A DNA stretch of 11,359 nt from an uncultured Nitrososphaerota archaeon. GTDB lineage: Archaea > Korarchaeota > Korarchaeia > Korarchaeales > Korarchaeaceae. Of the stretch, positions 1-6,672 are shown in pieces (the stretch's first letter is position 1; each line of letters opens with the position of its first letter). The notes below the pieces were generated by a model. The model did not search any database, had not been told where the DNA came from, and worked only from the letters and a program-made list of their open reading frames with translations. Made by a program: the position numbers and the translations under genes. The DNA lies in NCBI GenBank assembly GCA_964480775.1, contig CAYZRF010000039.1, forward strand, positions 1-11,359. The letters are read 5' to 3'.

Positions 1-1082
1 AACTCCTTGATCACCTTCTCAACGACGCTTTCTTCTGCGAATTCTTTTCTTATGACCAGTTTCTCCGCAATCATCTTCGGAGAACTAGAATAAAGCTGTA
101 AAGTCAGTTCTCCAATTATTTCATTGCTAAACAGAATTGCTGGACGAAGATACTCTCCTTTGCTCAGCTGTGGGTATATCCACCTAAATCCAAACGTGCG
201 TTCTAGCCTCTTGTAATACCCAAGCAGCAAGGCATCATCATTGAAGAGGATCCTTACGAGCCCTGGTTCTTCAGGAGAGGTTTCTATGCTGCTTAAGGAT
301 TCAAGGTCCTCCGATAGCAACCACTGGGTGTGGGTTCTCCCTTCAACCTCTACCTTAATCACCTCTCCTTTTTCGTACAGAGAATTAAGGATGTTTCTCG
401 TCTCTTTTACAGTCCAACCAACCCAGTGAGCAATGTCGTGGGCACAGAAGGGGCCGTAAACCTTTAGGCATTTGGAAGCCAGCCATTCCCTTGCTTCCTC
501 CTCAGGAACTTCCTCTATCTTCATCTTAGGGAAGAAGGTGTGAGTTAGTCCGTATCTTGGCCTTACCCGCCTAAATCCCACTCTAATAATCTCTCCAAAG
601 TTATAAAGCTCGTAAAAAAGCCTCTTTGCTTCTTTTTTGAGCTCAGGGTAAGCATCTGAAAAGACCTTGGAGAAACCTGAAGGAGTGATGGGCTGATGTC
701 TTTCTATGAGAGCAAGAGCCTTCCTGTGTGAGCTGGTAAGCCTTTCAGGGCAAGCGTAGTATGCGGCCTTCTTCCTCATTATGCTTCTCGTTGCCTTGAA
801 GAAAAAAGGGTATTCATCAGCTGATACAATTCTCAGGGCCTTTCTCAACACATGGCCGTAAACAAGCTTTCCTCTTTGAAGAAGATCTATCAGCCAGCCT
901 CTCTGGAAGGCCTTCATCCTTGCGAACATCTCGTAAAAATGCCAACCATCTTGGAGTCCTCCAATATCTCTTACAATCGATAGAGTGTCTTTCTTTCCTT
1001 CTCCTAATTTCTCAGGAGTAAGATGAAGCCTTTCTAGGACGAACTTTCTCGCTTCTTCTCTGCTAAAGCTAAGTCTAACCAA
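1..1082 (-). CDS. YcaQ/AlkZ-like winged-helix (HTH_42 / DUF1006 family) protein, putative DNA glycosylase-like. The 3-prime end lies beyond the left window edge.
   Basis: The minus-strand frame is open from a TGA near 1187 down to nt 1. It is missing from the supplied track because it runs off the edge. The first canonical start is TTG at 1082..1080, with GGAG 4 nt upstream. My translation: MVRLSFSREEARKFVLERLHLTPEKLGEGKKDTLSIVRDIGGLQDGWHFYEMFARMKAFQRGWLIDLLQRGKLVYGHVLRKALRIVSADEYPFF...CAHDIAHWVGWTVKETRNILNSLYEKGEVIKVEVEGRTHTQWLL...VRILFNDDALLLGYYKRLERTFGFRWIYP...RPAILFSNEIIGELTLQLY... At least 360 codons are present. The order of motifs matches my memory of the YcaQ/AlkZ family: N-terminal LS..EAR....L.R..L, then GGLQ, then L-R-x-x-L-x-x-V-x-A-x-D, a winged-helix segment, then V-R-x-L-x-x-x-D-x-L-L-L-x-Y. 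The start codon is uncertain. Confidence 0.7.
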   Translation of the reverse strand, partial: MVRLSFSREEARKFVLERLHLTPEKLGEGKKDTLSIVRDIGGLQDGWHFYEMFARMKAFQRGWLIDLLQRGKLVYGHVLRKALRIVSADEYPFFFKATRSIMRKKAAYYACPERLTSSHRKALALIERHQPITPSGFSKVFSDAYPELKKEAKRLFYELYNFGEIIRVGFRRVRPRYGLTHTFFPKMKIEEVPEEEAREWLASKCLKVYGPFCAHDIAHWVGWTVKETRNILNSLYEKGEVIKVEVEGRTHTQWLLSEDLESLSSIETSPEEPGLVRILFNDDALLLGYYKRLERTFGFRWIYPQLSKGEYLRPAILFSNEIIGELTLQLYSSSPKMIAEKLVIRKEFAEESVVEKVIKE

Positions 1083-1265
1083 TTCGCTCCCTGCCAGGTA
1101 AATGCCTGAGACCTTCGCTTCCTTGATTTTAATAAGCTCAAGGTTAGTGACTAAGCAACGGATGCTGACTAATGAAGCCCATTTCGTTCAAGCAATCGTC
1201 CTTTCCTTTTCCTTGATTTGAGGAGTTCATTTCGTGCTATGAACGGTTTTTTAGACCTGGATAGA

Positions 1266-2248
1266 TCAGAACAGGCTGATGATGAAAGCTATGGCTTGTG
1301 TCACTAAGGTCGAGAGGACAAGTTTTCCGAGGAAAGAGAGGTCGATTATCCACGTTTTGGCGTTCCTTATCCTTTCCTCTTTTCCAAGGAGGTTTTGGAG
1401 CTGAAAAAGATCGTTTATTGTAGCTTTCTTTAAACCCTCCATTTCTTCAATGTTAAGTTCTATTTTACGGAGTTCATCATCCTTGACCTTTGAGAGCCCC
1501 TTATGCAGGAGAAAATGAGGAACAATGGCCGTAGGCAAGAACATGAGGAGAGAACCGATAAGAGGAACGAAGAGGATGTACCTCCCCATATACCCATGGC
1601 CAATCCACTTGATACCGCTGTTGCCATCGTGTTTGCTGTTATGAGCTTTCTAAATCCAGAGAAGAACTTCTTCCCGCTTATAGTCAAGGCCTTGTTGTTG
1701 AAACCTATTTTTGAGCATAATTCCCAGTATGCAAGGTTCATTCCAATTGGGATGACGAACATGAACGTTCCTCCTAAAACGCAGCCATTTATGACCTGAG
1801 AAGCCCAACCATAGAGCTCAATAAGGGACGGATTTCTGTAGAAAGAAGCTATTTCTACGATGTTAGATGTCGAGAGGCCGAACTCCTTAACTAGGTAAAG
1901 GTGGAGGGTGCTAAAAACGAGCCAAAACCCGACGATGACCCAATATAAGCGGCTCAATGCCCTTTTACGAAGGACTGAGATAAGATCGTTTATCTCAATC
2001 TCTTTTAGATTTAACAAGGGCTTTAACTCTAAAACGGCTTCGCTCAGTCTTTTCATAGAAAAGATTATTGAAAACCCGCTAACGAACCCAAATGCGCTTG
2101 TGAGCAGCTATTCTATATCAAAGAGAAACCTAGTTACATTATCCGATAAGAAGGCCAATGCCAATCCTGCAAGGTAGGTAGCAGCGCTTATTGCACAAAC
2201 CAAGGCTACTGGGAGGTTCTCAACCTGGATGACGTGTTCTCTACCCAA
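1266..2248 (-). pseudogene. Disrupted polytopic membrane-protein gene of unknown family, present as three collinear fragments.
   Basis: Track ORFs 1460..2056 (198 aa) and 1266..1589 (107 aa) overlap by 130 nt in different frames. The tail of the first (GGTSSSFLLSVLSSCSCLRPLFLIFSCIRGSQRSRMMNSVK) looks out of frame. The second continues with membrane-like sequence (RYILFVPLIGSLLMFLPTAIVPHF...). One extra G in the G4 run (plus-strand CCCC, 1584..1587) would fuse ...GLAMGIWG to RYILFVPL... Upstream, the same frame as the 2056 ATG is open from TTG 2248..2246 through two hydrophobic segments (LPVALVCAISAATYLAGLALAFL and LLTSAFGFVSGFSIIFS). It is interrupted only by TAG at 2110..2108. The alternative reading is two or three genuine small overlapping genes. 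Confidence 0.45.
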
Positions 2249-2490
2249 AAAGACAACACATCACCTTTTGCATCAATCAATTTTCAAATTTAATCTAATA
2301 GATCCATCTAGATTGGACAAAAAGAAAGGAAAGAGGCCCACAAGATTCTGGCGCCGTTTCGTCTAAAGGCCCTGATTTTCAATTATTCAAGTCAATGCGG
2401 GATCTCAACAGCTTTTCATAGGTTGATGTGGGACACGCGACTGCAAAGAAGATATGTATTAGCGAACTAGCGCATCTCACCTTCCACTTG

Positions 2491-3609
2491 TTATTCTCCT
2501 GGAGAAATGTTTTTGAGAAGCGCTTCTATTTCTCCAGCTATCTTCGAACCCACGTTTGGGAGAGCCTTTAGGCCTTGCAACCCTTCTTCTTCATATATCT
2601 TCCTTACGTCTTCCTTCAATTCATCCAATGTCCATGCTGCTTTCCTATATGCCCAGACCTTGTTCTGAGATGCGTTCTGGATTTCAAGCCTGTAAGTCTT
2701 CTCGAAGAGATAATTAGCTACTGCCTTGTTAGTCCTTAATTCCTTAGGATAGATGTGAATTGGTCTCTTGAGCCTATCGTCTAGTCCAAGCTTGTTACAG
2801 ATCTCCATAACCTTCCTTCCTAATTCGCTTTGGTGCTCACGACTGGGTGTGTCCGATAGAGATGAACCTTTACCCGAGAAAATCCTTAATGTTGGACCTA
2901 CTGCCTCTGGCTTGAATTTCCTAAGGAGGGAGAGGTAATGCTCCGTAAGCGGGCTTCCAAGTGTTAGACCACCGCCAATTACATAGCTTCCTCCGTGCTG
3001 CTTGGTCTCCTTAACGACCTCCTCGATATTCTCTTCATCATCGTAAACGAAAGGGAGGGCCGGTATCAGGGCCGTTCCTGTTTTTATGCCAGCCCTACTT
3101 ATCTCTTTCATGGCCTCGAGCCTTCTCTCCGGAGGAGGAGCCTTAGGCTCCCAGAACCTCAGATCTTCCCTCAAGCTTATTATGCTGAAAGTTACGCAAG
3201 TCCAGGACTTCTCGTTTATCTCCTTTAACAGATCAAGATCCTTTAGGATGAGATCAGACTTCTCGTTCATGTGGACTGGAAATCCCAGATCAGCGCAGAC
3301 CTCTAACATCTTCCTTATCAGTCTGTATTTTACCTCGGCTGGCTGGTAGTAGCCCAACATTATTATGTCCCTTTCAACCCTCTTGAGTTCTCTCGAAAGG
3401 AGAAGTGGAGCGTTCACTTTCACCTTAATGACTTCGTAGAACTCCCAGTCTTGTCTGAAGTACTTCCTTGCCCTATAGTAGCAGTACTCGCACCCGTATT
3501 CACAGCCAACATAGGGGTTTGCTGAGTACCTGTTCCAGTACCACCCACCGTCGCAGTGCTTGTATACGTTTAGCACTTTCTTGGGCTTGTACTCCAAATA
3601 CCTAGCCAT
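2491..3609 (-). CDS. Radical SAM protein of the SplB / spore-photoproduct-lyase-like ('DNA repair photolyase', COG1533-type) family with a C-terminal helix-hairpin-helix.
   Basis: 372-aa ORF. The N-terminus KKVLNVYKHCDGGWYWNRYSANPYVGCEYGCEYCYYRAR carries the CX3CX2C radical SAM cluster motif (C36, C40, C43; nt 3481..3504). It sits in the N-P-Y-x-G-C-x-x-G-C-x-Y-C-Y-x-R context I associate with SplB-like enzymes. The C-terminal LQGLKALPNVGSKIAGEIEALL (nt 2515..2580) fits the HhH pattern L-x-x-L-P-x-(I/V)-G-x-K-x-A-x-x-I. Its ATG at 3609 overlaps the upstream stop by 8 nt. Confidence 0.85.
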   Translation of the reverse strand: MARYLEYKPKKVLNVYKHCDGGWYWNRYSANPYVGCEYGCEYCYYRARKYFRQDWEFYEVIKVKVNAPLLLSRELKRVERDIIMLGYYQPAEVKYRLIRKMLEVCADLGFPVHMNEKSDLILKDLDLLKEINEKSWTCVTFSIISLREDLRFWEPKAPPPERRLEAMKEISRAGIKTGTALIPALPFVYDDEENIEEVVKETKQHGGSYVIGGGLTLGSPLTEHYLSLLRKFKPEAVGPTLRIFSGKGSSLSDTPSREHQSELGRKVMEICNKLGLDDRLKRPIHIYPKELRTNKAVANYLFEKTYRLEIQNASQNKVWAYRKAAWTLDELKEDVRKIYEEEGLQGLKALPNVGSKIAGEIEALLKNISPGE

Positions 3610-4282
3610 GAGCTATCTCCCTCAAGGCCTTTTCTTTTAGCTTAGAGACTCCTGCATCATCAATCCTCGTGATTATATCTCTGGCTAAAGGTTCTCTCTT
3701 TCCAATCAGCTTACACGCATATATTGCTGTCCACTTTTTCTCAAGACTTTCAGAGGCCCATTTCCTCAATAAGTCAATGGCATTCACTCCTAAGATTTCC
3801 CATCCTCTGTTATGGATTCTCCTTAAGGCGAAGGCCGCAGTTCTTCTCTCTCCTTCCAATTTAGAGGAGGCTAATTCTTCAAGCTTAGACTGGGAAATGA
3901 TTCCTTCTTTTATGAGTTCTGCAATAGTATCGCCTGTAGACCTATTAACACCCGGTGATGGATCTTTTGCAAGTTCCTGAAGAAGATCAAGTGCAATTTT
4001 ATGCCTTCCTATCTGCCGTAAAGCTCTTGCTACTGCCTCTCTTACGAGCCAACTCTCGTCCTCTACTGCTTTTTTAAGAAGGAATTCTAATCCCTCCCCT
4101 TTTTTGAGCAACTCACCAACAGCTAGAATAGCGGTCTGCCTCATCAGTGGTTCTTCGCTCTTAATCCAGGATCTAACCTTCTCAGCGGCGTCCTTTCTTT
4201 TTAAGGAAAGAAGAAGAGAGATTGCCATCTTCCTTTCCTTTGCGTCTTTGCTGCAAGCCAATTCATCTATCCTTTCTCTCAT
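3602..4282 (-). CDS. HEAT-repeat protein, AlkD-like / DNA_alkylation-like paralogue.
   Basis: 226-aa ORF made of repeated helix pairs with HEAT-type signatures: EPLMRQTAILAVGELL, ESWLVREAVARALRQIG, GERRTAAFALRRI, and LLRKWASESLEKKWTAIYACKLIG. It is similar in size to the adjacent AlkD-like gene. Its ATG (4282..4280) overlaps the upstream TGA (4281..4279) as ATGA. Confidence 0.75.
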   Translation of the reverse strand: MRERIDELACSKDAKERKMAISLLLSLKRKDAAEKVRSWIKSEEPLMRQTAILAVGELLKKGEGLEFLLKKAVEDESWLVREAVARALRQIGRHKIALDLLQELAKDPSPGVNRSTGDTIAELIKEGIISQSKLEELASSKLEGERRTAAFALRRIHNRGWEILGVNAIDLLRKWASESLEKKWTAIYACKLIGKREPLARDIITRIDDAGVSKLKEKALREIAHG

Positions 4283-4935
4283 TTTAGGCCCCTCAATAAT
4301 TCATCTGCCTCCCTCGTTCCCATCAGTTTCTTTAGTCCGTGCCTTATGACGTAATTTGCCTCTTTGCTGGTGTTCATCCACCTCCTGCATAATTCGACCA
4401 CTAGATCTGGGTCTTTCTTACACATTTCCCTTAGGATATGGGCTACGGCTTTCCTTACGTATAGACTCCTGTCATCCTTCAATTTCTCCAGCAAAGGAAT
4501 CACTAACTTTGGCTTATCCTTGGCTATTCCCCTCAATGCCTCTATAGAGGTCCTCCTGACTGCTTCTAGGCTAGAAGAAGACCACTTCTCCATCTTATTA
4601 AGAAGAAGCTCCGGATATTTTCTTCCTATCACAACCAAGGAGGTACTAACTCCTTCAATGACTTCCCAGTTGTCATCGGCTTCAGCTATTTCTCTTAGAC
4701 GCCTAAATGCCTTCTCAGGATCTTTCTTTCCGATGAAACCCCAAGCATCGGCAACAGTCCATCTAGATAATGGAACACCAGTCTTCCAGAGTTCCTCCTC
4801 AAGGATGTAGAAACGCTTGGGATTAGAAAAGAAAAGATCAGCAAGAGCTCTTGAAACCATTCTTCTTGTTTTGACGCTTCTGTCCTGTGCTAGAGAGATG
4901 TACTCTTTTGGAAGAGATGTGTTGGCCTTGGCCAA
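4279..4935 (-). CDS. DNA alkylation repair protein family (AlkD/AlkC-type HEAT-like repeat, PF08713-like).
   Basis: 218-aa ORF with a TTG start at 4935 and GGAAGGA 7-13 nt upstream. Its motifs follow the order I remember for the DNA_alkylation family. DDNWEVIEGVSTSLVVIGRKYPELLLNKMEKWSSSSLEAVRRTSIEAL resembles nWdlvD...l..Wa.s.n.wvrRaa. DDRSLYVRKAVAHILREMCKKDPDLVVELCRRW resembles de.fvqkAvgWaLre..k.dpe.v..fl. Confidence 0.8.
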   Translation of the reverse strand: MAKANTSLPKEYISLAQDRSVKTRRMVSRALADLFFSNPKRFYILEEELWKTGVPLSRWTVADAWGFIGKKDPEKAFRRLREIAEADDNWEVIEGVSTSLVVIGRKYPELLLNKMEKWSSSSLEAVRRTSIEALRGIAKDKPKLVIPLLEKLKDDRSLYVRKAVAHILREMCKKDPDLVVELCRRWMNTSKEANYVIRHGLKKLMGTREADELLRGLK

Positions 4936-4940
4936 TCAGA

Positions 4941-5081
4941 TCATCCTTCCTTTTTTGGCTCAAATGCTTTCATCGGACAATCTTTTGCGTCCATATCTCC
5001 TTTAACTCTGTATCCGAAGCAGTCTCCCTCTTCTTCACTTATGGGCTTATAATACTTACAATCTCTACATTTGGGCATCAT
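4941..5081 (-). CDS. 46-aa Cys4 (CxxC...C...C) miniprotein, putative metal-binding. Not in the supplied ORF track.
   Basis: Hand translation of the minus strand gives MMPKCRDCKYYKPISEEEGDCFGYRVKGDMDAKDCPMKAFEPKKEG, then TGA at 4943..4941. GGAGGGATT lies immediately upstream of the ATGATG. The AbrB gene's TGA (5080..5078) is embedded in that ATGATG. The stop is 5 nt before the TTG of the next gene. This placement in an otherwise gapless operon supports translation. Confidence 0.6.
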   Translation of the reverse strand: MMPKCRDCKYYKPISEEEGDCFGYRVKGDMDAKDCPMKAFEPKKEG

Positions 5082-5422
5082 AATCCCTCCCGCTTCTTTC
5101 TGGAATCTTCGCTTTCAAATGATCGAACTCGGCTGAAGAATCCTTCCTCCTCAGCTATCTTTTCTATGAGGTGATCCATAACTTCAGCTTTGATCAGGAC
5201 GATCCCTGCTCCATCCTTTCTCCCAAGGACTATGAGTCTGGTTCCCCTTTCTATCCCATATTCTTCCCTTGCCCTTGCAGGAATGACAATTTGCCCCTTT
5301 TCGCTCACGGTCACTACACCATATATTAGCGGTCGCTTTCTAGTGCAGATTCCTTCGTCGCTATCAGCCGAGTTCATCTTACTTGTCTTACTTTTCTCAC
5401 TTTTAAAACTATTGTTTAGCAT
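5078..5422 (-). CDS. AbrB/MazE/SpoVT-family DNA-binding protein, likely operon regulator.
   Basis: The core VVTVSEKGQIVIPARAREEYGIERGTRLIVL matches the SpoVT-AbrB swapped-hairpin signature (v.v..kGqvtiP...R...gi..Gd.l.v). The start is ambiguous. The track uses TTG 5467 (129 aa). ATG 5422 gives 114 aa (MLNNSF...). ATG 5377 gives 99 aa (MNSADS...) and sits 23 nt downstream of TTTTAAAA, which is compatible with a leaderless mRNA. I report 5422 as a compromise. Confidence 0.8.
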   Translation of the reverse strand: MLNNSFKSEKSKTSKMNSADSDEGICTRKRPLIYGVVTVSEKGQIVIPARAREEYGIERGTRLIVLGRKDGAGIVLIKAEVMDHLIEKIAEEEGFFSRVRSFESEDSRKKREGL

Positions 5423-5480
5423 CCGATAGAGGGATACAATAGGTCGCTTTGTGCATGGGATTAGCAAGCTATTCTTCTAC

Positions 5481-5489
5481 TATTATAAA
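5481..5489 (-). promoter_or_regulatory. Candidate TATA box (TTTATAATA on the minus strand) for the five-gene operon.
   Basis: This is the only strong A/T box in the 149-nt gap between the aldo/keto reductase stop (5617) and the AbrB gene. It would place the transcription start near 5455-5460, upstream of ATG 5422. An alternative box, TTTTAAAA at 5401..5408, would serve ATG 5377. The call rests on sequence pattern only. Confidence 0.3.
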
Positions 5490-5616
5490 TCATGCAATTG
5501 GGGTCCTTTCTGGCAATAAATAAGGGCTTAGAGGAGTTCTCAATCTAAAGGATACTAGCTGGTTGCTTTTACAAAATATGCAGCAGTGAATGTAACGATC
5601 TAATCCTAGATCTTCC

Positions 5617-6672
5617 TTAGCCTCCAAACTTAACGTTTTTACTTATCTCATCTAAATACCTTAGATCTTCGCTGTTTAGATCTATTTCTGAGGCAGCTAT
5701 GGCTTCTTCTAGGTGAGACAGTTTCGATACGCTAATGATCGGTATGATAGGTATGCCCAGAACTTTTTCCATGTTCATAGTCCAAGCTAATGCCAGTTGA
5801 GCTGGTGTTATTCCCTTTTCATGGGCAAAATTCATGAACTTCAACAGGAAGTCTAACATGCTATTGGTGAAGTACTTCTTAGCTATCCATTTCATGTAAC
5901 TTGCCCTCGAAAGCTCAGGAACTCTCCACTTTCTTTTTTCCTTATCCACATACTTACCCGTTAGGACTCCTTGTGCTAAGGGGGAGTACGCAACAAATCC
6001 CAGCCCATATCTTTTGGCCACAAGTATGATGTCAGCTTCTACCTCTCTTTCCACCAAGTTGTATTTATATTGCAAGGCGGTTATCGGTTCAAGCCCATAG
6101 CGCTCTGCCAGCTCTATATACTCAACCAGACTTATGGCTGGAGCGTTACTAGCCCCTATATATCTTACTAAACCTTGCTCAATTAGAGAGGTGAAAGTGC
6201 GCATTATCTCAAGTTTGGGAGTTTCCGGGTCGTCCCTGTGCATGTAGTATATGTCCACGTATTCCATCTGGAGCCTTCGAAGGCTCTCCTTTATCTGCCA
6301 CATCACGTGCTTACGGCATAGGCCCTCCCCATTTGGGCCAGGTGACATCCTTCCAGCCACCTTCGTGGCTACAACCCATTCCTCCCTGTCATACTCCTTG
6401 AGAAGTTGGCCTAGGAGCTCTTCAGCATATCCAACATGGGTTAATGGAACTGGAGATATGCCTCCATGGTATCGGTTAGCCGAATCTATGAAGATAAGCC
6501 CGTTATCATAGGAAACCTTCAGGACCTTCCTAAACTCGTCTACATCTATCTTATAAGCTCCAGCTTCATCTACTTCAGGCAGCCTAGGTAAATGCCATGT
6601 TCCCAAAGATATTATCGAAACCTTAAGTCCTGAATTTCGAGATAACTTTACGTACCTCAAACCTTTCATCAC
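5617..6672 (-). CDS. Aldo/keto reductase family oxidoreductase.
   Basis: 351-aa ORF. The AKR catalytic tetrad context is visible: LGTWHL, FIDSANRYHGG (Asp and Tyr), VVATKVAG (Lys) and IYYMHRDDPETP (His), plus the later YIGASNA segment. The start is either GTG 6672 or the adjacent ATG 6669. Confidence 0.9.
   Translation of the reverse strand: MMKGLRYVKLSRNSGLKVSIISLGTWHLPRLPEVDEAGAYKIDVDEFRKVLKVSYDNGLIFIDSANRYHGGISPVPLTHVGYAEELLGQLLKEYDREEWVVATKVAGRMSPGPNGEGLCRKHVMWQIKESLRRLQMEYVDIYYMHRDDPETPKLEIMRTFTSLIEQGLVRYIGASNAPAISLVEYIELAERYGLEPITALQYKYNLVEREVEADIILVAKRYGLGFVAYSPLAQGVLTGKYVDKEKRKWRVPELSRASYMKWIAKKYFTNSMLDFLLKFMNFAHEKGITPAQLALAWTMNMEKVLGIPIIPIISVSKLSHLEEAIAASEIDLNSEDLRYLDEISKNVKFGG

Follow-up and report, generated by a model that had tools for sequence, protein, structure and literature searches.

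A putative autoregulated archaeal operon with AlkD-like HEAT proteins and a radical-SAM enzyme as a candidate system for processing damaged DNA

What might an AbrB regulator, a four-cysteine miniprotein, two AlkD-like HEAT proteins and a radical-SAM (rSAM) enzyme do together in one archaeal operon? We analysed these genes in a stretch of 11,359 nt from an uncultured archaeon of the Korarchaeaceae (the window), together with homologous loci. The archaeon falls in a Guaymas-type Thermoproteota MAG lineage of hydrothermal sediment and does not belong to the Thermococcales.

Organisation of the operon

Five ORFs, all on the minus strand, span 2491..5377:

5078..5377, minus strand: AbrB gene, 99 aa from ATG 5377 (a longer ORF, 5078..5467, opens from a TTG)
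4941..5081, minus strand: miniprotein gene, 46 aa
4279..4935, minus strand: HEAT1 gene, 218 aa, TTG start
3602..4282, minus strand: HEAT2 gene, 226 aa
2491..3609, minus strand: rSAM gene, 372 aa, last gene of the operon

The first-pass annotation had described five minus-strand genes joined by two ATGA overlaps, a 5-nt gap and an 8-nt overlap, and all were recovered at the coordinates given for them. The ATGA overlaps lie at 5078..5081 (AbrB/miniprotein) and 4279..4282 (HEAT1/HEAT2), the gap at 4936..4940 (miniprotein/HEAT1) and the 8-nt overlap at 3602..3609 (HEAT2/rSAM). Shine-Dalgarno-like GGAGG/GAGGG motifs were found 7-10 nt 5' of all four internal starts, and none was found upstream of AbrB. 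L001, L086, L002, L134 and L136 share this gene order and these overlaps, which argues that the packing is conserved and not due to chance. The rSAM gene is predicted to be translationally coupled to both HEAT genes, as are the genes at all junctions of the five-gene array. For HEAT1, both the TTG start and the 5-nt gap before it are secondary. In L001 and L086, HEAT1 starts with an ATG that overlaps the miniprotein stop (ATGA). The ancestral ATG is still present in the window (4944..4942), with a TGA in frame behind it at 4938..4936; a C-to-A difference from L001/L086 at 4936 makes codon 3 TGA, which leaves TTG 4935, the codon after it, as the sole possible start of the ORF.

Promoter, candidate operator and flanking genes

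The operon is flanked by the following elements and genes:

5481..5490, minus strand: second TATA-like sequence, ATTTATAATA, ~105 nt 5' of ATG 5377
5401..5408, minus strand: TATA-like box, TTTTAAAA, ~27 nt 5' of the AbrB ATG
5375..5400, minus strand: three direct repeats with a 9-nt period, GTGAGAAAA, GTAAGACAA and GTAAGATGA, the last overlapping the start codon
2319..2334, minus strand: pyrimidine/T-rich tract, TCTTTCCTTTCTTTTT, ~160 nt past the rSAM stop, read from the sequence
1269..2259, minus strand: membrane protein gene, 331 aa, the downstream neighbour, interrupted by two frameshifts in the window
3..1079, minus strand: AlkZ-like (HTH_42) DNA glycosylase gene, cut by the window end; PF06224 125.6 bits (cut-off 25.9)

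Candidate TATA boxes had been reported only upstream of the first gene, and a scan of the coding strand over 2300-5700 agreed: the only TATA-like octamers were at 5490 (ATTTATAA) and 5408, both upstream of AbrB. The box at 5401..5408 is likely the operon promoter, with the first gene leaderless or preceded by a very short leader, and homologous loci have an equivalent A/T box immediately 5' of the conserved repeat element. The sequence at 5481..5490 is kept in L001 and L086, not in L002 or L134; it could serve as an alternative promoter or have no function. Homologue alignment and the promoter element make ATG 5377 the most likely AbrB start; the TTG-5467 ORF is probably unused. The repeats at 5375..5400 are a candidate AbrB(-miniprotein) operator. 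Across 2.43 Mb of loci, the motif GT[AG]AGA-N3-GT[AG]AGA was present 30 times, in 27 loci, and all 30/30 occurrences were on the coding strand, either just 5' of an AbrB ORF or overlapping its 5' end.

Downstream of rSAM, the tract at 2319..2334 is a candidate archaeal terminator. A tblastn search of the window with the intact L001 membrane protein gave matches in three different frames, and a Pfam search of the 331-aa protein gave no match. The AlkZ-like gene lies two genes downstream of rSAM, in the same place as in L001, and may be part of the functional neighbourhood of the operon.

AbrB and its miniprotein partner

The SpoVT-AbrB assignment of the first gene was borne out by PF04014 (34.0 bits; cut-off 24.7) and TIGR01439 (40.4 bits; cut-off 28.3), which identify its product as a predicted AbrB/SpoVT-type DNA-binding regulator. 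The miniprotein has four cysteines (C5, C8, C21 and C35), which are conserved in its family; this family has 69 representative clusters. Weak Pfam matches among 34 members were to BssC_TutF (17), HPIP_like (9) and 4HPAD_g_N (9), and the family profile matched the MasC gamma subunit (9O8U_C, E 0.0015). The best fold matches of the AF2 model (pLDDT 89) were 4-HPAD gamma (2Y8N_B) and HiPIPs. These sub-threshold matches make a HiPIP/BssC-like [4Fe-4S] mini-domain the probable identity of the miniprotein.

Among 80 metagenome loci seeded with the miniprotein, AbrB was directly upstream in 56 of the 70 with sufficient upstream sequence. Downstream sequence of at least 2.5 kb was available for 31 loci; these held an SPL-like rSAM gene in 16 cases, a HEAT gene in 14, and one or both in 19 (SPL, spore photoproduct lyase). 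The tightest partner of the miniprotein is AbrB, not the enzymes.

The five genes might be two independent modules placed side by side: a self-contained AbrB and miniprotein pair for regulation or redox sensing, able to settle ahead of many operons, and a separate rSAM and HEAT enzyme pair, with no catalytic role for the miniprotein and no five-protein complex. We hold this as a possible but minority reading. It fits the AbrB-miniprotein pairs that stand without rSAM or HEAT in many long-flank loci, the AbrB::mini fusion protein P0154, the family members that accompany GyrI-like and TrmB genes where no rSAM gene is near, and the operator element, which follows AbrB and not the enzymes. Most bacterial rSAM and HEAT pairs, in turn, lack AbrB or the miniprotein. 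The two relatives that stand closest are L005 (96-98% nt identity) and L006; in both, rSAM directly follows an aldo-keto reductase gene and AbrB, the miniprotein, HEAT1 and HEAT2 are not present before it, so that rSAM evidently does not strictly need these four. However, about half of the well-flanked miniprotein loci carry an SPL-like rSAM gene, many more than chance would give if the regulator were unrelated. In L033 and L087, moreover, the miniprotein follows the rSAM gene, in frame with the rSAM C-terminus and not adjoining AbrB, and every junction in the window operon is coupled.

The rSAM gene and its neighbours

Two features of rSAM are considered here:

3481..3504, minus strand: rSAM cluster motif C36-x3-C40-x2-C43 (CEYGCEYC), invariant in 106 homologues
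2512..2733, minus strand: PolX-type 8-kDa HhH domain, residues 293-366; PF14716 36.4 bits (cut-off 30)

Pfam assigned Radical_SAM and HHH_8 domains to rSAM. The rSAM C-terminus shares homology with the 8-kDa domain at the N-terminus of family-X DNA polymerases, and the family profile matched T. thermophilus PolX (3AU2, 4.2e-6), the Pol beta 8-kDa domain (1.3e-3) and Pol lambda (2.2e-3). In these polymerases the 8-kDa HhH domain binds the DNA backbone and the 5'-phosphate. The best NCBIfam matches of rSAM were the COG1533-type PA0069 and Rv2578c families and also mobile-pair-B, all below cut-offs. COG1533 SplB-like rSAM genes are included in the SOS/LexA regulons of several bacteria (PMC8565304; PMC3765255).

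Synteny was examined in an rSAM-seeded sample of 80 GTDB species and 4 other loci. In 38/85 loci, an AlkD-like ORF on the same strand lay within 400 nt of the rSAM gene; where both flanks reached at least 900 nt, the count was 29/69. All ten AlkD-like ORFs tested of those adjoining rSAM passed the PF08713 gathering score. The rSAM and PF08713 pair is a conserved two-gene core of anaerobic Bacteria and Archaea, ranging over Chloroflexota, Patescibacteria, Bathyarchaeia and methanogens, and its PF08713 partners keep an intact triad in most lineages. An Fpg/Nei glycosylase gene was immediately downstream of rSAM in 16 loci. Across 149 immediate neighbours, an unbiased Pfam scan put PF08713 (23) and the Fpg/Nei domains (8-9) first, with all others at 5 or fewer; ~40% of rSAM-HhH genes had neither partner adjacent. 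DNA-glycosylase-type proteins are the only recurrent cross-phylum neighbours of the rSAM gene. Scattered homologues would have spoken against the first-pass annotation, but the homologues are syntenic. Only a small clade has all five genes in exactly this form. The conserved core consists of two modules, rSAM with HEAT and AbrB with the miniprotein.

HEAT1 and HEAT2

Both HEAT proteins exceeded the PF08713 gathering score (cut-off 21), as their placement in the DNA_alkylation family had implied: HEAT1 with 56.7 bits over profile positions 36-213 of 213, and HEAT2 with 37.9 bits and partial coverage, besides 61.1 bits to HEAT_2. HEAT2 is collinear with HEAT1 (26% identity, E 1e-5) and is a divergent paralogue of it. 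The PDB sequence matches of HEAT1 were AlkD2 (1.5e-11), AlkC (7.5e-8) and AlkD (5.6e-7). Both proteins are AlkD2-like, with AlkD2 the closest solved relative. In place of AlkD W109/D113/R148/W187, HEAT1 has W/E/R/H and HEAT2 W/E/R/F; the canonical D113 and W187 and the N-terminal B-helix region of AlkD are absent from both. Since the catalytic triad is non-canonical and the B-helix region is missing, glycosylase activity is doubtful. AlkD2 itself is inactive as a glycosylase and only a weak DNA binder, and AlkD2, AlkF and AlkG are non-catalytic HEAT-like-repeat proteins of unknown role (PMC4433238). For these reasons a lesion-sensing role of HEAT1 and HEAT2 is not assured.

Some AlkD homologues, such as YtkR2 and C10R5, serve in self-resistance as glycosylases that act on yatakemycin/CC-1065-type adducts (PMC8626424). 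The operon could confer resistance to DNA-alkylating natural products instead of serving housekeeping repair, with AlkD-like, AlkZ-like and, in other loci, GyrI-like proteins handling bulky minor-groove or cross-linking adducts and rSAM processing the adduct or the excised product. The AlkZ-like gene nearby, the pairing of the miniprotein family with GyrI-like small-molecule-binding proteins and the variation of the cassette between close relatives, as is often seen for accessory resistance genes, are consistent with this. We nevertheless consider it unlikely: no biosynthetic cluster lies nearby, YtkR2 and C10R5 keep the triad that HEAT1 and HEAT2 lack, and the occurrence of the pair in very diverse anaerobes, often by Fpg/Nei, points to endogenous or oxidative-type lesions.

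Proposed function

We suggest, with some confidence, that these genes form an autoregulated archaeal operon whose products process damaged DNA; domains and neighbours are what point to DNA as the rSAM substrate. AbrB would act on the GTAAGA repeats to repress the promoter from which it is itself expressed, and the FeS miniprotein would be either a redox or damage sensor of AbrB or a dedicated electron-transfer partner of rSAM. The HEAT proteins, here probably non-catalytic, would bind along the DNA backbone and, with no base flipped out, find or hold on to a lesion that is distorted, cationic or bulky; they may also deliver rSAM to it, as the first-pass annotation proposed, and the five genes may share a single transcript. 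The rSAM enzyme would dock on DNA through its HhH domain and reductively cleave SAM, and the 5'-deoxyadenosyl radical would abstract a hydrogen atom from the lesion, which would then be reversed directly or turned into a form that base excision repair can finish. Carriers of rSAM are almost exclusively anaerobes, from dark, anoxic sediment and subsurface lineages. Candidate lesions would therefore be alkyl or carbon-carbon cross-linked ones, which aerobes deal with by nucleotide excision repair or by enzymes that depend on O2.

Nucleic acids are substrates for modification by many rSAM enzymes. The enzyme could install or remodel a base modification in DNA (or RNA), with the HEAT proteins as nucleic-acid-binding scaffolds, and the unknown roles of AlkD2, AlkF and AlkG would leave room for this. 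We give such deliberate modification little credence, however, since the recurrent partners belong to repair glycosylase families (PF08713 with a mostly intact triad, Fpg/Nei, AlkZ-like), the HhH domain fused to rSAM is of the PolX repair type and the closest fold to rSAM is a repair lyase. Furthermore, methyltransferase, restriction or other modification genes did not co-occur among the scanned rSAM neighbours, and the PADLOC anti-phage defence models gave no match.

The operon is best read as an uncharacterised DNA-lesion processing system. The first-pass annotation knew of no described pathway with this gene combination, and the literature searched likewise held no description of the rSAM and AlkD-like pairing. 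This pairing may represent a new oxygen-independent DNA repair route.

Comparison with spore photoproduct lyase

The top six PDB matches of the rSAM AF2 model (pLDDT 95.6) in Foldseek were all SPL (E 1.6e-8, TMq about 0.55), with the next family at ~1e-5. An hhalign comparison with SPL (E 4e-6) aligned the cluster cysteines and both flanking tyrosines, rSAM Y42 and Y44 with Y96 and Y98 of SPL(Gt). This shared CxYCY motif, the closest solved structure and the JGI label 'DNA repair photolyase' on some homologues would suit a plain lyase of the spore-photoproduct type, one that reverses UV thymine dimers in organisms that do not sporulate. In contrast, rSAM scored 21.6 bits against TIGR04070 (cut-off 400), its sequence-level similarity to SPL was marginal (E 0.04), the H-donor Cys of SPL is not conserved at the aligned position and SPL lacks the extra HhH domain. 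The photoproduct is also not expected in dark, anoxic hosts, and we regard this role as very improbable. The initial description of a SplB-like radical SAM/HhH enzyme stands for the fold and for HHH_8, which is above its cut-off, but not for SPL family membership. The catalytic core of rSAM is most similar to spore photoproduct lyase, within an enzyme that is not an SPL orthologue.

Five coupled genes in the window

The first-pass annotation had described an operon of five minus-strand genes encoding an AbrB/SpoVT-type regulator (AbrB), a 46-aa four-Cys protein (the miniprotein), two AlkD-family HEAT-like-repeat (HLR) proteins (HEAT1 and HEAT2) and a radical-SAM protein (rSAM). All five open reading frames were located as described.

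Genes of the operon, in window coordinates
2491..3609, minus strand: rSAM gene (372 aa)
3602..4282, minus strand: HEAT2 gene (226 aa)
4279..4935, minus strand: HEAT1 gene (218 aa), TTG start
4941..5081, minus strand: miniprotein gene
ending at 5078, minus strand: AbrB open reading frame

The proposed junctions also proved exact, namely an ATGA overlap at 5078..5081, a 5-nt gap at 4936..4940, a second ATGA overlap at 4279..4282 and an 8-nt overlap at 3602..3609. A GGAGG/GAGGG-type motif lies 7-10 nt upstream of every internal start, and none was found for the first gene, AbrB. As had been claimed, candidate TATA boxes occur only ahead of the first gene; on the coding strand between 2300 and 5700 TATA-like octamers are present only at 5490 and 5408. 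A T-rich tract (2319..2334) lies beyond the last gene, rSAM. Since the five-gene arrangement recurs in other contigs, the packing is not due to chance. Rfam and tRNA scans of the window returned no matches.

The ancestral ATG of HEAT1 overlaps the miniprotein stop codon, as in the homologous contigs L001 and L086 (window 4936..4944). In the window, a single base difference at 4936 creates an in-frame TGA after this ATG, leaving TTG 4935 as the sole possible HEAT1 start. The difference may be genuine or may stem from an error in the sequence.

An assumed placement in the Thermococcales was rejected: the closest genomes are Thermoproteota/Nitrososphaerota MAGs. The nearest is the Guaymas MAG 'Thermoproteota archaeon B15_G15' (L005), with 96-98% nucleotide identity to the window. 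A 'Nitrososphaerota archaeon' MAG (L006) is about 85% identical, and a hydrothermal-vent contig (L001, 84%) is collinear with the window over nearly its whole length.

The rSAM gene is paired with DNA glycosylase-type genes in diverse anaerobes

Gene neighbourhoods were compared in an rSAM-seeded set of 80 GTDB species representatives and four other loci. HLR genes were detected with a profile iterated from HEAT1 and HEAT2, and were counted when on the same strand and no more than 400 nt from the rSAM gene. The co-occurrence expected by the first-pass annotation was borne out: an AlkD-like gene adjoins the rSAM gene in 38 of 85 loci. The share was 29 of 69 when only loci with 900 nt or more on each side were counted. 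The hosts include Anaerolineae and other Chloroflexota, Patescibacteria, a Deltaproteobacteria bin, Bathyarchaeia, Methanofastidiosum and Methanomicrobia. Each of the ten rSAM-adjacent HLR genes tested passed PF08713. A second partner was an Fpg/Nei glycosylase gene, found directly downstream of the gene for rSAM with its helix-hairpin-helix (HhH) domain at 16 loci; two loci carry both Fpg/Nei and HLR genes. An unbiased Pfam scan of 149 immediate rSAM neighbours placed PF08713 (23) and Fpg/Nei domains (8-9) at the top, with all other families at five or fewer. No description of a pairing of rSAM with AlkD-like or Fpg proteins was found in the literature searched, in line with the earlier remark that no described pathway with this gene combination was known; this search covered few subscription journals, and absence from it is not proof.

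The upstream half of the operon was examined in a miniprotein-seeded set of 80 metagenome loci. Enough upstream sequence was available at 70 of these loci, and at 56 of them AbrB lies directly upstream of the miniprotein. Among the 31 loci with at least 2.5 kb downstream, an rSAM gene resembling spore photoproduct lyase (SPL) was present in 16, a HEAT gene in 14 and one or both in 19.

Arrangements of the rSAM and miniprotein loci
Exact five-gene form: window, L001, L002, L086, L134, L136
AbrB-HEAT-rSAM::miniprotein: L033, L087
AbrB-miniprotein, then a ~300-aa SPL-like rSAM without HhH, often followed by HEAT: L089, L094, L097, L101, L149-L151, L155, L157
Further miniprotein variants: AbrB-miniprotein then a short HEAT gene; miniprotein with GyrI-like and TrmB genes
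rSAM-HhH followed by Fpg/Nei: L009, L014, L018-L024, L037, L038, L045, L061, L067, L069, L082

rSAM has the fold of spore photoproduct lyase and a family-X polymerase domain

Pfam matched rSAM to Radical_SAM (3e-11) and to HHH_8 (6.8e-9), and Pfam SPL (PF20903) was not reported for it. Its best NCBIfam family was PA0069 (1.6e-40), at 139.2 bits against a cut-off of 360, followed by Rv2578c (7.5e-35; 120.5 bits against 430) and radical SAM mobile pair protein B (1e-24, far under the cut-off). These scores place rSAM outside the PA0069 and Rv2578c families, although these are the best-matching COG1533-type families. In several bacteria, uncharacterised COG1533 'SplB-like' radical-SAM genes are under LexA/SOS control (PMC8565304; PMC3765255), consistent with a role in the damage response. 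We found 489 homologues with the same ~370-aa architecture, mainly in uncultured Bathyarchaeia, Nitrososphaerales, Thermoplasmatota, Anaerolineae and Patescibacteria; an exact look-up of the window protein in the contig index gave no match. C36, C40, C43 and Y44 are invariant in 106 homologues, and C271 and a WAYRKAAW motif are nearly invariant.

A PDB search with the single rSAM sequence gave only noise, and matches came from the family profile and from a fold search. An AF2 model built from 106 sequences (pLDDT 95.6) was compared with the PDB using Foldseek. The top six matches were all SPL, with E values of 1.6e-8 to 2.2e-7 and TMq of 0.53-0.55 over ~290 columns; the next fold family was SkfB, at about 1e-5. 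Aligned to SPL by hhalign (E 4e-6), C36/C40/C43 and Y42/Y44 pair with C90/C94/C97 and Y96/Y98 of the Geobacillus thermodenitrificans (Gt) enzyme. The radical-relay tyrosines of SPL are Y97/Y99 in Bs, and its H-atom donor cysteine is Bs C141 or Gt C140, which sits elsewhere in clostridial SPLs (PMC5368176). Gt C140 falls opposite V78 of rSAM, in a stretch of low alignment confidence. The SplB-type assignment of the first-pass annotation thus stood for the fold and for the CX3CX2C motif with both tyrosines, and did not extend to the SPL equivalog TIGR04070, against which rSAM scored 21.6 bits (E 9e-5; cut-off 400).

The C-terminal match to HHH_8 (PF14716) passes its cut-off (36.4 bits against 30). 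In a profile search, residues 293-366 of the rSAM family matched the N-terminal 8-kDa domain of family-X polymerases, the hits being Thermus thermophilus PolX (3AU2, 4.2e-6), Pol beta (1BNO, 1.3e-3) and Pol lambda (1NZP, 2.2e-3). In PolX enzymes the 8-kDa domain binds DNA by its backbone and, at gaps, by the 5'-phosphate. The window protein has a lysine after the hairpin glycine (VGSK), in a column that varies between S, K, E and R among homologues. rSAM is therefore SPL-like in fold, bears a DNA-binding domain of the repair-polymerase type and is no SPL orthologue.

HEAT1 and HEAT2 are AlkD-family paralogues that depart from the AlkD catalytic triad

Both HEAT proteins score above the PF08713 gathering cut-off of 21 bits, as the first-pass annotation had predicted. 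HEAT1 matches over nearly its full length (56.7 bits), and HEAT2 (37.9 bits) matches profile positions 118-186 only and is strongly HEAT_2. The two are collinear paralogues with 26% identity. The closest solved relatives of HEAT1 are AlkD2 (1.5e-11), AlkC (7.5e-8) and AlkD (5.6e-7).

Catalytic residues were read from an alignment to AlkD 3BVS. The AlkD triad is Trp109-Asp113-Trp187 (PMC8626424); these positions read W/E/H in HEAT1 and W/E/F in HEAT2, so the triad is incomplete in both. Equivalents of W109 and R148 are retained, and both proteins are gapped at AlkD Y27 and R43. Both are shorter, at 218 and 226 aa, and lack the N-terminal B-helix region. This minor-groove 'B-helix' is needed for damage recognition by AlkD, and AlkD2, which lacks it, has no glycosylase activity and binds DNA weakly (PMC4433238). 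The rSAM-adjacent HLR proteins (~250 aa) of most other lineages keep W/D/R/W, including the full AlkD triad.

The miniprotein is a predicted HiPIP-like iron-sulphur domain

A word-indexed protein search with the miniprotein found one near-identical match only, and the family was recovered by exhaustive search. It comprises 69 representative clusters of 42-65 aa with four conserved cysteines, C5 and C8 being invariant and C21 and C35 at least 90% conserved. Against HiPIP-like small-subunit Pfam models the window miniprotein scored 14.8 bits, below the cut-off of 25. Among 34 family members there were weak matches to BssC_TutF (PF08201; 17 of 34), HPIP_like (9), 4HPAD_g_N (9) and HIPIP (4), the strongest BssC_TutF match being 7.5e-4 and all lying below family thresholds. 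The family profile matched the MasC gamma subunit (9O8U_C, E 0.0015). Foldseek placed the AF2 model (pLDDT 89) closest to the 4-HPAD gamma subunit (2Y8N_B, TMq 0.68) and then to HiPIPs, with non-significant E values of at least 0.2. These three independent weak lines, from Pfam, the MasC profile and the predicted fold, point to a HiPIP-like [4Fe-4S] mini-domain. A Zn-ribbon was rated less likely, every family- or fold-level match being to a HiPIP-type cluster domain. Neither the window nor the miniprotein-seeded loci yielded a glycyl-radical enzyme.

One protein, P0154, is an AbrB::miniprotein fusion. In L033 and L087 the rSAM C-terminus and the miniprotein share a reading frame, yet an SD motif precedes the miniprotein ATG. 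Members of the family also adjoin genes for GyrI-like small-molecule-binding proteins, with TrmB regulators encoded divergently, or come as tandem doublets or as the N-terminal domain of larger proteins (L096, L109, L110, L120, L123, L125; P0131, P0139, P0166, P0189).

AbrB loci share a putative operator

The SpoVT-AbrB assignment was upheld, with the swapped-hairpin domain of AbrB above the cut-offs of PF04014 (34.0 bits against 24.7) and TIGR01439 (40.4 against 28.3). An A/T box and, after it, GTAAGAAA-type direct repeats are common to the upstream regions of AbrB genes in loci whose proteins are only ~50% identical. The pattern GT[AG]AGA-N3-GT[AG]AGA occurred 30 times in 2.43 Mb, at 27 loci, compared with ~0.6 expected at equal base frequencies. 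All 30 copies lie on the coding strand, either a short way upstream of an AbrB ORF or across its 5' end. In the window the repeats span 5400..5375 (minus strand), and the final one overlaps ATG 5377. From this position, the most likely AbrB start is ATG 5377, giving a protein of 99 aa, and the TATA box at 5408 is the likely working promoter of the operon. The position also supports putative autoregulation of AbrB through the repeats. The element is a candidate operator of a new AbrB and FeS-miniprotein regulator family.

A Gly-x-Cys motif just before the AbrB domain (residue 11, window ~5345..5347) is invariant in seven aligned AbrB homologues and absent from the fusion protein P0154. This cysteine may be an extra ligand or a redox-sensing residue.

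The rSAM gene can stand alone in close relatives

L005 and L006 lack window 3622..5618 and with it AbrB, the miniprotein, HEAT1 and HEAT2. A ~100-nt spacer lies there between an aldo-keto reductase gene and the rSAM gene (L005:1075-1187, L006:118-230). The rSAM gene can thus stand alone, whichever the direction of change. The five-gene form in the more distant L002, L134 and L136, together with a frameshifted HEAT2 fragment about 4 kb away in L006, favours loss, which is a more economical explanation than gain. The spacer is ~97% identical between L005 and L006, although the flanking genes differ by ~15%. It was considered as a remnant of the HEAT2 3' end; this was rejected, since its local alignment score of 26 is within the shuffled range (mean 22, maximum 32).

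Flanking genes in the window
3..1079, minus strand: AlkZ-like (PF06224) glycosylase gene, two genes downstream of rSAM, cut by the window end
1269..2259, minus strand: 331-aa membrane protein of unknown family, with two frameshifts in the window, intact in L001
8971..10938, plus strand: 655-aa ORF with faint Ig-like matches only, conserved in L001 (660 aa)

The AlkZ-like gene (PF06224, 4.3e-36) has the same position in L001. The broken membrane-protein gene is either a pseudogene or an assembly error. L005 lacks a 1.4-kb stretch matching window 420..1802; the junction (L005:2983-2992), at a GGTTGG(G/A)CT microhomology, would join the membrane-protein and AlkZ-like genes into one.

Proposed function

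The tests proposed with the first-pass annotation support its interpretation, that of DNA-lesion processing or modification, with the corrections given above. The analysis shows what the domains are, how the genes are coupled, that they fall into two conserved modules, that rSAM has glycosylase-type partners and that a promoter element is present. The locus is best filed as a form of radical-SAM DNA repair coupled to base-excision-type proteins. DNA lesions would be the substrate. The HEAT proteins would locate or hold the lesion, the rSAM enzyme would abstract a hydrogen atom from it, and the miniprotein may sense redox state or pass electrons. Anti-phage defence was considered as an alternative role and rejected: with PADLOC, rSAM, AbrB, the miniprotein, HEAT1 and the AlkZ-like protein had no match, and the only two for HEAT2 were weak and to generic HEAT repeats (OloA, 2.8e-4; HEAT-ARM_XIII, 5.5e-4).

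SPL acts directly on DNA and is, to our knowledge, the only radical-SAM enzyme established in DNA repair. Tentatively, and with rather more doubt than confidence, we suggest that the rSAM-HhH enzyme may found a second class of such enzymes, one that is widespread among anaerobes of both Bacteria and Archaea. Together with Fpg/Nei or with AlkD-like proteins that do not flip bases, it would use a 5'-deoxyadenosyl radical to reverse or unlock lesions that aerobes treat by O2-dependent enzymes or nucleotide excision repair. In some archaea, control would lie with an FeS-sensing AbrB regulator of a new kind, acting at a conserved operator of its own. Examples would be an anaerobic counterpart of AlkB-type dealkylation, or reactions that cleave lesions with carbon-carbon cross-links, among them cyclopurines and intrastrand cross-links. 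Many strict anaerobes lack O2-dependent direct-reversal enzymes, and the system could help explain how they handle alkyl or radical-derived lesions. An SPL-like enzyme with a polymerase-X DNA-binding domain, linked genetically to three glycosylase superfamilies (AlkD-like, Fpg/Nei and AlkZ-like) in many anaerobic phyla, would add a new DNA repair chemistry. It may also offer a role for the puzzling non-catalytic AlkD2-type HEAT proteins, and brings a regulatory pair of AbrB and a new, predicted small FeS protein with a recognisable putative operator. The core pair is both widespread and uncharacterised, and recombinant proteins would allow a direct test of these proposals.

Comparison with known systems

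The miniprotein resembles the small subunits of glycyl-radical enzymes (BssC/TutF, MasC, 4-HPAD gamma) in size class and, at non-significant E values, in its top fold matches, and shares with them an N-terminal CxxC-x12-C ('TCKDCKFYxPIxEExGDC' in the miniprotein, 'STCKECRNYFPINEEASRGDC' in MasC). BssC/MasC-type subunits serve glycyl-radical enzymes, whereas the miniprotein is partnered with an AbrB regulator and rSAM. HEAT1 and HEAT2 resemble the inactive AlkD2, with Glu in place of D113, His (HEAT1) or Phe (HEAT2) in place of W187, and no B-helix region. Here two tandem paralogues stand in place of one gene and are coupled to a radical-SAM enzyme.

The PA0069, Rv2578c and mobile pair B proteins (COG1533) are uncharacterised, as is rSAM, but no C-terminal HHH_8 domain and no AlkD-like or Fpg partner has been described for them. 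The 8-kDa domain of Pol beta, Pol lambda and bacterial PolX has a significant profile match to the rSAM C-terminus over ~74 residues, which take in the AYRKAA helix and the G-[IV]-G motif of the hairpin; in PolX it is attached to a polymerase, and here to a radical-SAM core. The dRP-lyase nucleophile lysine of Pol beta, K72, would correspond to a position that is not conserved across the rSAM family.

The closest likeness in fold is to SPL (SplB, for example Gt 4FHC), which shares with rSAM the radical-SAM core, CX3CX2C and two tyrosines flanking the third cysteine (CxYCY). The two are only ~16% identical, and in the alignment, of low confidence at this point, rSAM has no cysteine at the SPL C140/C141 position. 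Unlike SPL, rSAM carries an extra PolX-type HhH domain, and its gene lies beside glycosylase-type genes in anaerobes, whereas SPL is encoded in spore formers.
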